Shown here: positions 23,240 to 30,781 of the stretch, piece by piece
Layout: the number at the start of each line of letters is the position of its first letter
Position numbering within the stretch: position 1 is the stretch's first letter
Virus record (IMG/VR): IMGVR_UViG_3300043811_000020
Source: an uncultured virus (IMG/VR IMGVR_UViG_3300043811_000020)
Lineage: Duplodnaviria; Heunggongvirae; Uroviricota; Caudoviricetes
Reading direction: 5' to 3' (one strand)
DNA: 64,000 nucleotides
The notes under the pieces: generated by a model
What the model saw: only the letters and a program-made list of their open reading frames with translations
Databases searched by the model: none
Told to the model about the DNA's origin: nothing
Translations under genes and position numbers: made by a program

Positions 23240-24049
23240 ATGTTCCACTTCATCAGCGGTCTGCCGCGTGCGGGGACTACGCTTCTTGCGTCTATCTTAC
23301 GCCAGAACCCCGCCTGTCATGCGTCGATCATGTCCCCGGTCGGACATCTTCTTACCAGCGCGCACACAGCCATGGGGCCGGCCAATGAAGCGGATCGATA
23401 TATAACGGACGACCAACGCCGGCGTATCCTGCGTGGCATTGTTGAGAACTATTATGCGCCGGTTGACCCGTATCATTCTCGTTCGGTGATCTTTGACAAC
23501 AACCGCCGGTGGACAGCGAACGCATCGTTGCTTCACGAGCTTTTCCCGGAGAGCAAGATCATCTGTTGTCTGCGCACGCCGGCGGCGATTGTGGACAGCT
23601 TCGAGCGTCTGTTTCAGAGCCATCCGCTCGCGCTCAGTCACATCTACGGCAGCACGTCGAACTCGACCGTTTACGAGCGCGTGAGCGGCATCATGGGGGC
23701 GCAAGGCGTTCTCGGGTTTGCGCTCAATGGGCTCCGCAGCGCCTTCTTCGGGCCACACCGGGACAAACTGCTTGGCGTGCAATATGACGACCTATGCCGC
23801 TTCCCTGCCGCCGTTCTGAAGGACCTGACCGAGGCTTTGGGGTTGCCCCACCACAACTACAACTTCGCCAAGATTGAGCAAATTCCGGGTGCGACTGAGT
23901 TCGACCAGGATGTGGCGACCCCGGGGCTTCATGACCTAAAACCGGAAGTGGTATACGAACAGCGGCCTTCTGTGTTGCCGCCCGACATCTGGAACAGTTT
24001 GCCGGCTCCGTTTTGGCTGGTTAAGGAAGGGGAAACCGACGCGAAGTAG
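23240..24049 (+). CDS. PAPS-dependent sulfotransferase
   Basis: 5'-PSB loop FISGLPRAGTTLL; 3'-PB LRTPAAIVDSF; VQYDDL. Confidence 0.88.
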   Translation: MFHFISGLPRAGTTLLASILRQNPACHASIMSPVGHLLTSAHTAMGPANEADRYITDDQRRRILRGIVENYYAPVDPYHSRSVIFDNNRRWTANASLLHELFPESKIICCLRTPAAIVDSFERLFQSHPLALSHIYGSTSNSTVYERVSGIMGAQGVLGFALNGLRSAFFGPHRDKLLGVQYDDLCRFPAAVLKDLTEALGLPHHNYNFAKIEQIPGATEFDQDVATPGLHDLKPEVVYEQRPSVLPPDIWNSLPAPFWLVKEGETDAK

Positions 24050-24079
24050 CGTTGGCACAATCCTTCGAAGGGCTACGCC

Positions 24080-24658
24080 ATGGGTATCCTCTCGTCCAGC
24101 AACTACGACCGGAATGTGCGCGGCGTTGTGCTGCGGGCGTGCGTTGAGGCGCTCGCCGGCGCGACCGGCGGCCTCCCCACTGGGCCGACTGGCCCCACCG
24201 GCTCTGCGACTGGTGCCACCGGCCCTGCCGGCCCCGGTGTCACAGGTCCGACCGGTCCCGTTGGACAAAACACCGGCCCCCAAGGATCGATTGGTTTCCA
24301 GGGTCCGACCGGCGCCACAGGCCCGACCGGCCCGACCGGCCCCACTTCTCTCGCCGGCCCAGCTGGGCCGCTGGGTCCGACTGGTCCGCTTTTCGGCGTG
24401 ACCGGCCCCACCGGACCGACAGGGTCCTCGACTGGCATCACCGGTCCCACTGGCAAGACTGGCCCGACCGGGTTCACCGGCTTTACGGGTGCCACAGGTC
24501 TCACTGGCGGCCCCGGGCCTTACGGGCAGACCGGCCCGACTGGCCCGACCGGGCGCGTCATCACGGTCTTCATTCCGCCCACGTCCAGCCCGGGCGTGAC
24601 TGGACAGGTGTGGAACAAGAACGGTATCCTCACCGTCTCGCAAGGCCCCGGAACGTAA
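24080..24658 (+). CDS. Collagen-like (Gly-Pro-Thr) protein 1
   Basis: G-X-T repeats; C-terminal [13 protein letters not shown]. Confidence 0.88.
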
Positions 24659-24667
24659 GGTGCCGCT

Positions 24668-25252
24668 ATGGCTGCTTCCCGATCCATTCTCGTTTCGACG
24701 CACTATGACGACAACATGATCAGCCCTGTGCTGAAGCAGGTCGTCGATGCGATCAACGCGGGCAATATCGCTGGCTCGACCGGCCCCACCGGTATCACTG
24801 GGCTTGGTGGCGGCCCGACCGGCCCGACCGGCCCGACCGGCGTCACTGGGTCCACTGGACCGACGGGTGGCGCGAGCGGCCCCGCGGGACCGACCGGATT
24901 GACCGGCATCACCGGCGGCACCGGCGTCCAAGGGAATTTCGGCGTGGCAGGCCCGACCGGCCCGACCGGCCCGACCGGCCCGACGGCTGTTCAAGGCACT
25001 GCCACCGGCATCACTGGCCCCACCGGCTCGCCGAGCGGTCCGGCTGGACCGACTGGCTTTACCGGCCCGACCGGCGCAACTGGTCCGACTGGTAACACAG
25101 GGTCCACCGGCCCTGTTGGACCGGCCGGCGCCACCGGCATCACCGGCCCAACTGGCGTCAATCGGCGCACCGTCAATCTGCCCTCTGCCGATCCTCATGT
25201 AGTCGGACGGGTGTGGAACAACGCCGGCGTCATCACGATTTCCGCGGGGTAA
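24668..25252 (+). CDS. Collagen-like (Gly-Pro-Thr) protein 2
   Basis: G-X-T repeats; C-terminal [18 protein letters not shown]. Confidence 0.88.
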
Positions 25253-28730: not shown

Positions 28731-29310
28731 CAAAGGCGGCTGGCACTTGAAGTACGGCGGCGCTGACAGCGACACGTGTCACAACTACACGCCATTCTAC
28801 CACCAGCTGCTCGGCGACAAGCGCGAGAATATCCAGCGTGTGCTGGAGATCGGCATCAATGCTGGTAGCAGCCTCCGCATGTGGGAGGAGTATTTCCCGC
28901 GCGCGAGCATCTACGGGATCGACATCCGGCCCGAGACCTTGATTAATGAGGGCCGCATTCACTCGTTCCTCGCCGATGCCGGCAACGGCGCGAGCATCGA
29001 GAATGCGCTATGGCAAATGGGCAACCCGAAGTTCGACCTGATCGTGGACGACGGCTCGCACGAGCTTCATCATCAGGTGTTCTCGTGCAATGCGCTCATG
29101 CCCAGCCTGCGCGAGGACGGCCTCTACATCATCGAGGACATGTGCCTCGACTGCCAGCCAGAGGTTGTCGGCAACAAGCTCGACCTGGACCATTACAAGT
29201 GGGAGGCCGTCGACTGCGGCCACGGCATCGGGAAGGCGCACTGCGACTGGCAGTGCCCCAAATGCCACGGTCACGAAGGCGAGCGGCTGCTTGTGGTGCG
29301 TCACCGATAG
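28663..29310 (+). CDS. Class I SAM-dependent methyltransferase (sugar O-methyltransferase-like)
   Basis: TDK..H.Y, VLEIGI, GIDI, DLIVDDGSH, YIIED. Confidence 0.88.
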   Translation: MSVSPEKLTLTPLCNLARKHQTDKGGWHLKYGGADSDTCHNYTPFYHQLLGDKRENIQRVLEIGINAGSSLRMWEEYFPRASIYGIDIRPETLINEGRIHSFLADAGNGASIENALWQMGNPKFDLIVDDGSHELHHQVFSCNALMPSLREDGLYIIEDMCLDCQPEVVGNKLDLDHYKWEAVDCGHGIGKAHCDWQCPKCHGHEGERLLVVRHR

Positions 29311-29387
29311 GAGACCAGCGTGTGGACTGCGATTATCGTGATCGGGGTGCTATTCTGGCTGCTCGTTATGCTTGAGCTTGGGAGGCC

Positions 29388-30086
29388 GTGATGTGGTTTC
29401 TTCAGGACCGCTATGAGGTTACGCGCGCGGTAAACAACGAGTTTTACGCGCGTAGCCCCTTCAATTACGTCGTCATGGACGGGTTCTTCAAGTGGAGCGT
29501 GGCTGACGAACTGTATAGCGAGTTCATGGCGTTCGAAGACCCTCGGTGGTTGTCGTACACGAGCGACGTGCAGATCAAGAAGGCGTGCAACAACTGGAAC
29601 GCCTTTCCGCCGACCACGTACCGTGTTTTCCAGGACCTTATGAGCAAGGAGTTCATCAACCTTATCGACTACTCTCTCCTGCCGGATTACGGGCTACATG
29701 GCGGAGGGTGGCATGCGCACCGTAACGGCGGTAGGCTTGGGCCGCACTTGGACTACAGCATCCACCCCAAGCTGGGGAAGGAGCGCAAGCTTAACCTGCT
29801 TGTGTATCTGACGCCGGGCATGCGCCCGGAGTACGGCGGCCACCTCGGGCTCTACTACGGAAACGCGACGGCGCCGGGTGAGGTGGCTGCTGAAATCGAG
29901 CCGAAGTTCAACCGCGCTGTGCTGTTCGACACAACTCAGAACTCGTGGCACGGTATGAGCCGCGAACTCGCGATGCCGGACTGCACCTGGGTCCGGCGCA
30001 GCTTGGCGACGTACTACCTGTCCGAGCCCGGCGCGAGTGCGGTACAAGAGCGGCAGCACGCGCATTTTCATGGAGACGGCATATGA
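29388..30086 (+). CDS. 2OG-Fe(II) oxygenase (prolyl-hydroxylase-like fold)
   Basis: HxD (HLD), GGHL, PKFNRAVLF, WHG, RRSL. Confidence 0.88.
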   Translation: MMWFLQDRYEVTRAVNNEFYARSPFNYVVMDGFFKWSVADELYSEFMAFEDPRWLSYTSDVQIKKACNNWNAFPPTTYRVFQDLMSKEFINLIDYSLLPDYGLHGGGWHAHRNGGRLGPHLDYSIHPKLGKERKLNLLVYLTPGMRPEYGGHLGLYYGNATAPGEVAAEIEPKFNRAVLFDTTQNSWHGMSRELAMPDCTWVRRSLATYYLSEPGASAVQERQHAHFHGDGI

Positions 30087-30781
30087 GCGGCGTTCGAGTG
30101 TTCAACGGGTTCGTGCCCGACGCGTTTCCGGCCAAGCACCAGAGTGCGGCGCAGATGAACGAGTGGCGCGACCGGCTTCGTGACGCGGTGCCCGATTTGA
30201 CCACTTACGTTACGCCGCTCGATCAGTGTTGGCTTTGGGAGATGCTGCGGGACATTCCCAACGTGTTTTCGGCTGACCACCCGAACGAGCCGGCAGACCG
30301 GTATCCGACCCCGCGTGACGCTGTGATCTCGCAGTGCGTGCTGCACCAGCGCTTCCGTTGGTTGATGGAGGCCGCGATGGATCAGCCCAGCGTCAACACG
30401 TGGGTATGGCTGGAGCCCACCATCTTCAAGCAGCGCGGCATTACTGGCGACGTGATCCGGCAGTTCCTTCAGGATGTGGAGACCTATCCGGTCGACGCTA
30501 TCTCCCTGCCGGGCGTCTGGGACAAGGTTCCGGTCCGAGACCATATCAACCATTGGCGTTTCTGTGGGTCGGCGTGGGTCTGTCCGCGGAAGTACGTTGG
30601 TCCGGTATGGCAGGCGGTGGCGACGTTGGTTCCGATGCGCACACGCCTGACGCACCGCATCTGCTGGGACAACAGCACGTGGTCTTACCTCGAACTGCTG
30701 AATATTCTTCCGATGCGCTGGTACCCAGGCAACCACGACGAAACCCAGCTGACCGGCTATTTGACCGGGATCACACGTTAA
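30083..30781 (+). CDS. Putative glycosyltransferase (HtrL/WlaTC-like) B, paralog of 27981..28730
   Basis: CVLHQRF.WL, WVWLE, PGVWD, WRFCG, RWY..HD.T shared with paralog A. Confidence 0.65.
   Translation: MSGVRVFNGFVPDAFPAKHQSAAQMNEWRDRLRDAVPDLTTYVTPLDQCWLWEMLRDIPNVFSADHPNEPADRYPTPRDAVISQCVLHQRFRWLMEAAMDQPSVNTWVWLEPTIFKQRGITGDVIRQFLQDVETYPVDAISLPGVWDKVPVRDHINHWRFCGSAWVCPRKYVGPVWQAVATLVPMRTRLTHRICWDNSTWSYLELLNILPMRWYPGNHDETQLTGYLTGITR

Follow-up and report, generated by a model that had tools for sequence, protein, structure and literature searches.

Between the portal gene and the genes for the scaffold-like and major capsid proteins of an uncultured tailed phage (IMG/VR record IMGVR_UViG_3300043811_000020) lies a block of genes for small collagen-like proteins and carbohydrate-type enzymes, hereafter called the cassette. 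By the window we mean the whole stretch of DNA analyzed, 64 kb in length, which is most of one tailed-phage genome. We conclude that the cassette is probably a phage-encoded O-glycosylation system for the phage's own collagen-like fibers, analogous to the SgtA-BclA3 pair of C. difficile. The core idea of an original prediction, made from the letters of the window, was that the glycosyltransferase and tailoring genes belong with the collagens and have protein, not DNA or lipopolysaccharide (LPS), as their target. This idea is supported at the sequence level by the match of the main glycosyltransferase to SunS and GmaR, by the adjacency of its gene to collagen genes, by gene fusions, and by a methyltransferase of the sugar type.

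Organization of the cassette

The cassette occupies the + strand as a tightly packed block between the portal gene (20948-23236) and the scaffold and capsid genes (31916-34056). Its features are as follows.

23240..24049, + strand: sulfotransferase of the 3'-phosphoadenosine-5'-phosphosulfate (PAPS) type, 269 amino acids (PF13469, E = 2.4e-16)
24080..24658, + strand: colA, collagen-like protein A, 192 amino acids (PF01391, E = 4.3e-10)
24668..25252, + strand: colB, collagen-like protein B, 194 amino acids (PF01391, E = 1.1e-12)
25256..25864, + strand: colC, collagen-like protein C, 202 amino acids (PF01391, E = 2.1e-11)
25897..25930, + strand: terminator-like hairpin, 9-bp stem with 7 G-C pairs followed by a run of Ts, located downstream of colC and ahead of the enzyme genes
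25942..27984, + strand: three-domain enzyme, GT2-TPR-GH130/GT108-like propeller (PF00535, E = 4.7e-9)
27969..28730, + strand: HtrL-like protein A, 253 amino acids (GT-A fold)
28651..29310, + strand: S-adenosylmethionine-dependent methyltransferase, sugar O-methyltransferase type, ATG at 28651 (PF13578, E = 2.7e-6)
29391..30086, + strand: 2-oxoglutarate (2OG)-Fe(II) oxygenase, P4H-like superfamily, ATG at 29391 (PF13640, E = 5.2e-14)
30083..30781, + strand: HtrL-like protein B, 232 amino acids (27% identity to A, E = 2e-29)

Every gene named in the original prediction was found on this strand, at or within a few codons of its predicted place. The description of the block as co-directional and tightly packed likewise holds: from the portal onward, the gaps between successive genes are 3, 30, 9, 3, 77, -16, -80, 80, -4, and 63 nucleotides, the first nine values leading from the portal to the last cassette gene and some of them being overlaps. 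Since the GC content at third codon positions is alike in cassette and core genes (0.71 to 0.83), there is no compositional sign of a recent import of the cassette.

The hairpin at 25897-25930 could reduce expression of the enzymes relative to the fibers, and it is mostly unconserved among relatives. A hairpin of comparable strength was found in only 3 of the other 40 cassettes described below (L097, L116, and L122), and we rejected the idea of a conserved terminator dividing substrate genes from enzyme genes on this ground.

Three small paralogous collagens with conserved termini

Counting runs of at least 3 triplets, colA, colB, and colC contain 39, 40, and 37 G-X-Y triplets, respectively. 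Threonine occupies the Y position in 24/39, 28/40, and 25/37 of these, and exact GPT triplets number 14 in each protein. ColA is built of an N-terminal 'ILSS.NYD.N' domain, an interrupted G-P-T region, and a C-terminal 'PPTS.P.V.G.VWN.NG.LTVS.G' motif. The three proteins are paralogs that have in common a short N-terminal domain, in which D10, N12, and L18 are invariant, and the C-terminal motif. Orthologs are encoded in the related loci L003, L004, and L005, and an alignment of 11 small collagens from four phages stays in register over nearly the full length, with 32 invariant columns, mostly glycine.

When the C-terminal motif was searched as a regular expression, it was found in 64 viral loci and in 0 of 80 bacterial loci, with a pattern strict enough to miss colB and colC of the window itself. 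The notion that the motif is common to bacterial collagens is thus unsupported by this strict expression. The C-terminal 32-residue piece of ColB gave three marginal matches among deposited phages by tblastn (E = 0.02 to 0.2). An open reading frame (ORF) of 689 amino acids on the reverse strand (23936-26005) was discarded as a shadow of the collagen repeats and not a gene.

The GT2-TPR enzyme resembles protein and peptide glycosyltransferases

The gene that follows colC probably starts at ATG 25942 rather than at TTG 25927. Numbered from 25927, its product consists of a GT2 catalytic domain of GT-A type, a TPR region at about residues 175 to 305, and a propeller at about residues 340 to 685. 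D98 and D100 of the DxD motif (D98-A-D100) are invariant in 4/4 aligned homologs. A profile of four homologs matched SunS (5e-13), the SunS-like chain 7msk (7e-13), and GmaR (4e-10) among the Protein Data Bank (PDB) sequences, and the window protein as a single query found SunS and GmaR at about 2e-4. SunS and the SunS-like enzyme are peptide S-glycosyltransferases, and GmaR of Listeria glycosylates flagellin. Because of its kinship with these protein and peptide glycosyltransferases, the target of the GT2-TPR enzyme would be protein and not DNA or LPS. The search of deposited phages gave no full-length homolog of the three-domain enzyme.

The C-terminal 346 residues of the window enzyme had no sequence match in Pfam or the PDB, and a profile of the domain found none among PDB sequences up to E = 10. 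PF04041 matched 7/22 relatives of the domain below its gathering score (best E = 3.6e-4), and a Bradyrhizobium homolog at 7e-4. An AlphaFold2 model computed from 22 sequences (pLDDT, 88.2; pTM, 0.89) was compared with known structures by Foldseek. Its best approximately 35 rows were GH130 enzymes, namely, beta-mannoside phosphorylases and a mannoside synthase (E = 7.6e-10 to about 1e-7; TM, 0.5 to 0.63), and it also matched the Leishmania GDP-mannose-dependent mannosyltransferases (E = 7e-6). The 'glycosidase' of the original prediction is therefore a GH130/GT108-like propeller by fold, with a weak, subthreshold match to PF04041 in sequence. In this setting, we judge that a role as a transferase or phosphorylase is at least as likely as hydrolysis.

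HtrL-like proteins and methyltransferase

HtrL-like proteins A and B are paralogs without a Pfam match of their own. PF09612 (HtrL_YibB) gave weak matches in 9/28 of their relatives, below the gathering score (best E = 0.005), and the nearest named language-model neighbors of protein A were HtrL_YibB clusters (score, 0.96). Protein A has 505 homologs, none with a Pfam domain or a name and many on contigs of 60 to 70 kb, and a profile of the family gave only one chance-level match among PDB sequences. A fold search on the predicted structure revealed a GT-A fold over most of the protein. The top row was a glycosyltransferase of PBCV-1 'involved in the glycosylation of the major capsid'; rows less than 1 Z unit apart are tied, and we therefore take this match as evidence of a GT-A fold only. 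Of the 'HtrL-like glycosyltransferase' that had been predicted, then, the glycosyltransferase fold stands, but the match to the HtrL family is weak. HtrL_YibB is an uncharacterized family associated with lipooligosaccharide (LOS) loci (PMC4172580).

The methyltransferase matched PDB entries 3ssm (MycE; 1.1e-20) and 8ia9 (1.9e-18), a demethylmacrocin O-methyltransferase. The match covers window residues 42 to 169 against residues 199 to 331 or 174 to 306 of these chains, and the N-terminal part of these enzymes, which are of about 400 residues, has no counterpart in the window protein. By sequence, the window methyltransferase resembles MycE/TylE-type sugar O-methyltransferases of macrolide pathways.

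Sulfotransferase and oxygenase

The sulfotransferase carries 'PRAGTT' at residues 9 to 14 and R112...S120, the two PAPS-binding motifs, and R10, G12, R112, and S120 are invariant across an alignment of 22 relatives. NoeE was its sole NCBIfam match (7e-10, far below the cutoff), and the family counts 421 homologs. The gene is found in 11/41 related cassettes, always as the first gene past the portal. Three collagens occur in 10/11 sulfotransferase-bearing cassettes and in 6/30 of the others, a difference (Fisher p = 6.5e-5, kinship ignored) from which we conclude nothing. Tyrosine sulfation of the N-terminal Y-D-x-N motif of the collagens was considered and found unsupported, the motif being as frequent in collagens without a sulfotransferase (32/56) as in those with one (18/32).

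In the oxygenase, HxD...H...RxS is kept in 5/5 cassette homologs, which is also the number of cassettes that encode it (5/41). The protein matches PF13661 in addition to PF13640. The original prediction had pointed to prolyl hydroxylases; a 2OG-Fe(II) core with its catalytic motifs is indeed present, but links to characterized prolyl hydroxylases are weak (OGFOD1, 0.015, and a P4H-domain protein, 0.099, among PDB sequences).

The cassette is conserved in related uncultured phages

We searched IMG/VR with an alignment of the enzyme and analyzed the best 80 of 310 relatives. Forty-eight loci extend from the portal to the small gene at 30845-31180 of the window, and removal of 7 duplicates left 41 distinct cassettes of 3.1 to 11.9 kb. 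The GT2-TPR gene is present in 41/41 by construction of the sample; HtrL-like and methyltransferase ORFs were told apart by BLAST. Small collagens were found in 36/41 cassettes, in each case 2 or 3 of them directly upstream of the GT2-TPR gene (none in 5 cassettes, 2 in 20, and 3 in 16). The survey of cassette synteny proposed with the original prediction thus yielded a recurrent block, and because it recurs, with conserved non-collagen termini of its collagens, in 41 distinct related contigs, we consider it more than a chance assembly.

The remaining genes vary between cassettes. HtrL-like genes were present in 30/41, the window-type methyltransferase in 17/41, a nucleoside diphosphate (NDP)-sugar 4,6-dehydratase in 13/41, DUF4422 in 10/41, a sugar C-methyltransferase in 8/41, another methyltransferase in 7/41, and UDP-galactopyranose mutase in 3/41. 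The exact gene set of the window is unique among the 41 cassettes, and the closest set, that of L105, lacks only the sulfotransferase. Because the accessory genes vary between phages, the glycan probably varies too. Endonuclease VII genes were also observed in 11/41 cassettes (L005:6960-7346, L125:7627-8004, and 9 more), usually just before the GT2-TPR gene, and look like mobile nuclease insertions.

We also sampled loci by the capsid protein. Among the best 80 capsid relatives (76 to 94% identity), a GT2-TPR gene precedes the capsid gene at 34/34 informative loci, duplicates being kept and the other 46 loci having too little upstream DNA, and none of these 34 has a portal gene without it. The nearest cultured relative, RHph_TM3_14A (capsid protein 67% identical), has portal, small ORFs, scaffold, and capsid genes and no cassette, and its whole genome of 60,889 bases gave no collagen match above the Pfam cutoff. 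Collagen fibers and cassette go together in this comparison, since RHph_TM3_14A is without both and the window has both.

GT2-TPR genes adjoin collagen genes in bacteria and in other phages

In a collection of bacterial genomes, the best 80 of 570 GT2-TPR relatives were analyzed. A full-length homolog is present at 49 of these loci, and a collagen-like ORF lies within 5 kb of it in 35/49 and within 2 kb in 31/49. The neighboring collagens are nearly always of the G-X-Thr type, as in L041, where threonine is found in 452/479 triplets. At the other 31 loci only the GT2-TPR part is present, of about 330 to 385 amino acids, the size of SgtA; a collagen-like ORF lies within 5 kb in 17/31, 3 of these ORFs being doubtful in that they lack threonine at Y and are possibly spurious. 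Across five rhizobial and methylotroph genomes of 4 to 9 Mb, 149 of the 150 PF01391 matches among those listed (246 in all) fall within about 17 kb of the enzyme gene, in 5/5 genomes, on our reading of the coordinates. Single-protein queries with the phage sulfotransferase and oxygenase gave no match in these five genomes.

The accessory families are also tied to the enzyme by fusions. An HtrL-like domain and GT2-TPR form one ORF in the betaproteobacterial contig L009 and in the 116-kb viral contig L135, followed in each by a collagen-like ORF, and GT2-TPR is joined in one ORF to a homolog of the window methyltransferase in Mesorhizobium L041 and L058. Because they are fused to it in other genomes, the HtrL-like and methyltransferase families appear to belong with GT2-TPR.

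Other phages offer related arrangements. In the cultured Synechococcus phage DSL-LC02 (L167, 3189-9633), a homolog of just the GH130-like domain, annotated as a beta-mannosyltransferase, is the divergent neighbor of an 873-residue 'collagen-like protein' and is followed by two FkbM methyltransferase genes, the group lying between tail fiber genes. In the jumbo phage Tunturi_5, a GT2-TPR homolog lies about 4 kb from a tail fiber gene with GPT repeats. In the PHROGs database, the GT2-TPR family is assigned to the category 'moron, auxiliary metabolic gene and host takeover.'

In a maximum-likelihood tree built from 85 sequences, the phage enzymes form one clade (support of 99 in the Shimodaira-Hasegawa-like approximate likelihood ratio test) next to an alphaproteobacterial clade. 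Because this tree is unrooted, we leave the direction of transfer unclaimed. The phage clade includes, next to the window's gene, a 6.4-kb contig binned as a Vicinamibacterales metagenome-assembled genome (L006); this contig is probably a piece of phage DNA that ended up in a bacterial bin.

The rhizobial loci were noticed for their own content. Giant collagen-like ORFs of the G-X-Thr type, 1209 to 1875 amino acids long, occur in Mesorhizobium and Bradyrhizobium (L041:895-6522, L058:2955-6584, and L020:2037-7016, all on the - strand). These ORFs are divergent from multidomain glycosyltransferase genes and, in L058, adjoin an ABC transporter gene. The enzymes of these loci include GT2-TPR-GH130-like proteins fused to further glycosyltransferase or methyltransferase domains and a second protein of GT2-TPR-GT1 type, together with a GT11-like protein bearing an F5/8C domain and an FkbM methyltransferase.

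Other collagen-like fibers of the window

The window contains six collagen-like genes in all. The further G-X-T proteins listed in the original prediction proved to be real.

13755..15731, + strand: G-X-T collagen-like fiber, 658 amino acids, with the N-terminal domain of the protein at 36434 (PF01391, E = 4.2e-22); possible substrate
35651..36430, + strand: G-P-T collagen-like fiber with a Gp53-like C-terminal domain (PF01391, E = 1.5e-11; PF21882, E = 3.7e-9); possible substrate
36434..36979, + strand: short fiber protein, 181 amino acids, with an adaptor-like N-terminal domain and a G-P-T stretch (PF23148 Gp77, E = 0.0016, below the cutoff)

The proteins at 36434-36979 and 13755-15731 have an N-terminal domain of about 115 residues in common (53% identity, E = 3e-47), which weakly matches the podophage GP4 fiber-tail adaptor family. 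On the strength of this adaptor-like domain, both fibers may dock at one common site on the tail.

A proposed glycosylation pathway and its alternatives

We propose that the collagen chains would be made late, together with the head proteins, and that the TPR domain would grip the unfolded chain so that the GT2 domain could put the first sugar on the threonines of the G-X-Thr repeats in the cytoplasm, as SgtA does on BclA3. The GH130/GT108-like domain and the two HtrL-like proteins of GT-A fold might then lengthen the glycan, and the MycE/TylE-like methyltransferase might O-methylate one of its sugars. The sulfotransferase would add sulfate to a sugar, or possibly to tyrosine, and the oxygenase would hydroxylate either proline or a sugar. 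The substrates would be the three small collagens and probably also the G-P-T fibers at 13755, 35651, and 36434. The small collagens would then trimerize and be mounted on the virion, the head or neck being a plausible site; this placement, suggested by gene position and by analogy with SPP1 gp12 and the phi29 head fibers, is tentative, and we give it somewhat less than an even chance.

Several observations weigh against this interpretation. The evidence for glycosylated virion collagens consists of genes, sequences, and predicted folds, and the likeness to SgtA-BclA3 is one of architecture and context, the sequence matches being to SunS and GmaR. Collagen-like fibers are common in phages, which makes co-occurrence within phages alone weak evidence. 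The G-X-Y runs of the small collagens are often broken, at positions common to the paralogs. In 5/41 cassettes, the GT2-TPR gene occurs without small collagens. Four of these trio-less contigs were searched whole, and three had collagen ORFs elsewhere; the remaining one, a 10.5-kb fragment, had none. Because of these five cassettes, and because three of the four contigs searched carry collagen ORFs elsewhere, we consider the other G-P-T fibers of the window no less likely substrates than the trio. The distant viral homologs L162 to L165 have no collagen ORF in their flanks, nor does the 42-kb record behind L163. No collagen ORF was found in the flanks of 14/49 full-length bacterial loci, many of these flanks being short; in L050, a collagen gene lies just beyond the flank. 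As to the tailoring enzymes, a profile of 22 sulfotransferase relatives found TPST1 and TPST2 as its best solved matches (3.6e-9 over about 200 residues). The sulfated glycan of the original prediction accordingly keeps its PAPS-type sulfotransferase, but the sugar as acceptor is weakened, the nearest solved relatives being tyrosine sulfotransferases. The oxygenase belongs to an unstudied family, and one of its neighbors among the predicted structures of the Atlas comes from a giant-virus protein, of which it is one domain beside NDP-sugar epimerase/dehydratase domains.

The glycosylation targets of the enzymes might instead be other proteins of the virion, for example, the major capsid or tail proteins, with the small collagens as mere neighbors, or the tail-fiber collagens might be the only substrates. 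The five cassettes without small collagens speak for this, as do the capsid-protein glycans reported for Che8 and Rita (PMC11256854, citing Freeman et al. 2023) and the top fold match of the HtrL-like protein to a PBCV-1 enzyme of capsid glycosylation. The last point loses its force with the tie of rows inside one Z unit, where only the GT-A fold is shown. Furthermore, GT2-TPR and collagen genes also adjoin in bacteria, which have no capsids, and the cassette-less RHph_TM3_14A lacks any collagen gene too. We therefore regard this explanation as unlikely. A target in the host, where the enzymes would remodel collagen-like surface proteins or envelope glycans and, for example, mask a receptor against superinfection, is suggested by the rhizobial homologs next to giant collagen-like proteins that look secreted, by the link of HtrL_YibB proteins to LOS loci (PMC4172580), and by the PHROGs category of the GT2-TPR family. 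Yet the genes are embedded in the head-gene block, where they run in the same direction as structural genes and overlap with them, and are universal in the clade rather than sporadic; the phage supplies its own collagen substrates beside the enzymes, which form a clade of their own apart from the bacterial ones. Taken together, these features make a host target distinctly improbable.

Phages are known to glycosylate hydroxymethylated bases, and a cassette with an oxygenase, glycosyltransferases, and a methyltransferase could be read as a system for hypermodification of phage DNA by base hydroxylation, glycosylation, and methylation. However, the oxygenase matches PF13640 and PF13661, and the Pfam scan revealed no TET/JBP family; the matches of the GT2-TPR enzyme are to protein and peptide glycosyltransferases, those of the methyltransferase are to sugar O-methyltransferases, and the same enzymes adjoin collagen genes in bacteria. 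DNA as the target is thus very improbable, and we favor O-glycosylation of the phage's own collagen-like fibers. A fuller version of this reading would have the A, B, and C collagens form a heterotrimeric fiber at the head or neck, coated with an O-glycan that is methylated and sulfated. The phage-specific pathway for this coat would have a common ancestry with the one by which Hyphomicrobiales hosts glycosylate giant secreted collagen-like surface proteins of their own; the host-like 'collagen glycocalyx' would help the virion to stick to or hide in the surface layer of the host, and the fast turnover of accessory sugar genes among related phages would track host glycan types. All of this together we hold to be quite unlikely. 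Mimicry of rhizobial surfaces by the phage glycan is speculative; the fact that bears on it is that rhizobia carry a homologous enzyme beside giant collagen-like proteins.

Genomic context of the cassette

The structural and lysis set of the window comprises a large terminase, an SU10-type portal, a scaffold-like protein, a major capsid protein, an internal virion protein, and an endolysin, and its other proteins include a family A DNA polymerase, an SNF2 helicase, and a DUF927 protein. No tRNA genes were found in the 64 kb. The genes that bound the cassette are the following.

20948..23236, + strand: portal protein (PF23899 SU10_portal, E = 3.2e-12; phrog_332, E = 2e-68), upstream boundary of the cassette
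31916-32989, + strand: scaffold-like protein (phrog_13678, E = 4e-36), downstream context
33034-34056, + strand: major capsid protein (phrog_267, E = 3.6e-49; PF25209), downstream context

Among deposited phages, those closest to the window are four Rhizobium phages of the RHph_TM3_14A group (capsid protein, 66.8% identical), and megablast of 20948-34056 against 50,697 deposited phages gave zero matches. Hyphomicrobiales of soil are the likely hosts of the clade. Between the cassette and the scaffold gene, 30845-31180 encodes a protein of 111 amino acids with a duplicated 'FAKGG..MFG' motif and no family match, kept in every related phage. Elsewhere in the window, the AT skew is strongly positive (about 0.2) at 44000-54000, across genes for proteins of 534, 807, and 1768 amino acids, the latter two of which have no Pfam or PHROG family match.

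Significance and relation to known systems

To our knowledge, phage virions have usually been thought of as unglycosylated, a view that work on mycobacteriophages has changed for capsid proteins. The cassette suggests a second and much wider route of virion glycosylation, namely, the enzymatic decoration of collagen-like fibers. It is fixed in a large uncultured phage clade (at least 598 capsid matches in IMG/VR) and has counterparts in cyanophages, a jumbo phage, and many bacteria. If the proposed function is correct, it would provide a substrate for families without a studied member, that is, the HtrL-like proteins (505 homologs), the GH130-like domains fused to GT2-TPR, and the phage sulfotransferases (421 homologs), and it would link phage fibers to the unstudied giant collagen-like proteins of rhizobia. 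It would also bear on phage adsorption, stability, and antibody recognition. DSL-LC02, being cultured, could serve as a test system for fiber glycosylation. Full-text searching, with most subscription journals outside its scope, found no paper describing a phage cassette of GT2-TPR and collagen genes and none on the rhizobial giant-collagen locus.

The likeness of the window enzyme to SunS, the 7msk chain, and GmaR covers the GT2 domain and the helical repeat region, and all of these enzymes act on peptides or proteins. Their acceptors, however, are a cysteine of a bacteriocin and flagellin, and they have no GH130-like domain. BclA of Bacillus anthracis has a GPT-rich collagen-like region with O-linked oligosaccharides. 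The likeness to the window lies in this region, BclA being a spore surface filament of a Gram-positive bacterium.

The closest parallel is SgtA of C. difficile, a GT-A and TPR protein that adds beta-O-GlcNAc to threonines of the GPT repeats of BclA3 and whose gene adjoins bclA3 (PMC7157674). Both systems have a GT-A domain followed by TPRs and a gene next to a GPT-rich collagen gene, and bacterial homologs of the window enzyme that are of SgtA size adjoin collagen-like ORFs at the 17 of 31 loci given above (3 doubtful). In contrast to SgtA, the window enzyme is found in a phage and has an extra GH130/GT108-like domain. Moreover, the window system adds HtrL-like GT-A proteins, a sugar-type methyltransferase, a sulfotransferase, and a 2OG oxygenase, and its substrates are short phage proteins with conserved termini of their own.

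In the mycobacteriophages Che8 and Rita, phage glycosyltransferases put glycans on virion proteins and thereby form a glycan shield (PMC11256854). There, the target is the capsid protein and the genes are located close to the 3' end of the genome, and the account given of these phages mentions no collagen-like substrate, sulfotransferase, or GH130-like domain (PMC11256854). The trimeric, collagen-like gp12 of SPP1 and the fibrous gp8.5 of phi29 both decorate phage heads (PMC7602432). Their likeness to the window collagens, for which a location on the capsid is our proposal, is by description, and what that source says of them includes no dedicated modifying enzymes. Mimivirus L230 combines a 2OG-type hydroxylase with a glycosyltransferase and modifies viral collagen-like proteins, hydroxylating lysine and glucosylating the hydroxylysine (PMC9614988). 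The window collagens, unlike these, have few lysines and many threonines, and the window oxygenase is a separate small protein present in only 5/41 cassettes. The system described here thus differs from all of these in its setting in a phage head module, in the three-domain fusion, in its set of accessory enzymes, and in short paralogous substrates with phage-specific termini.

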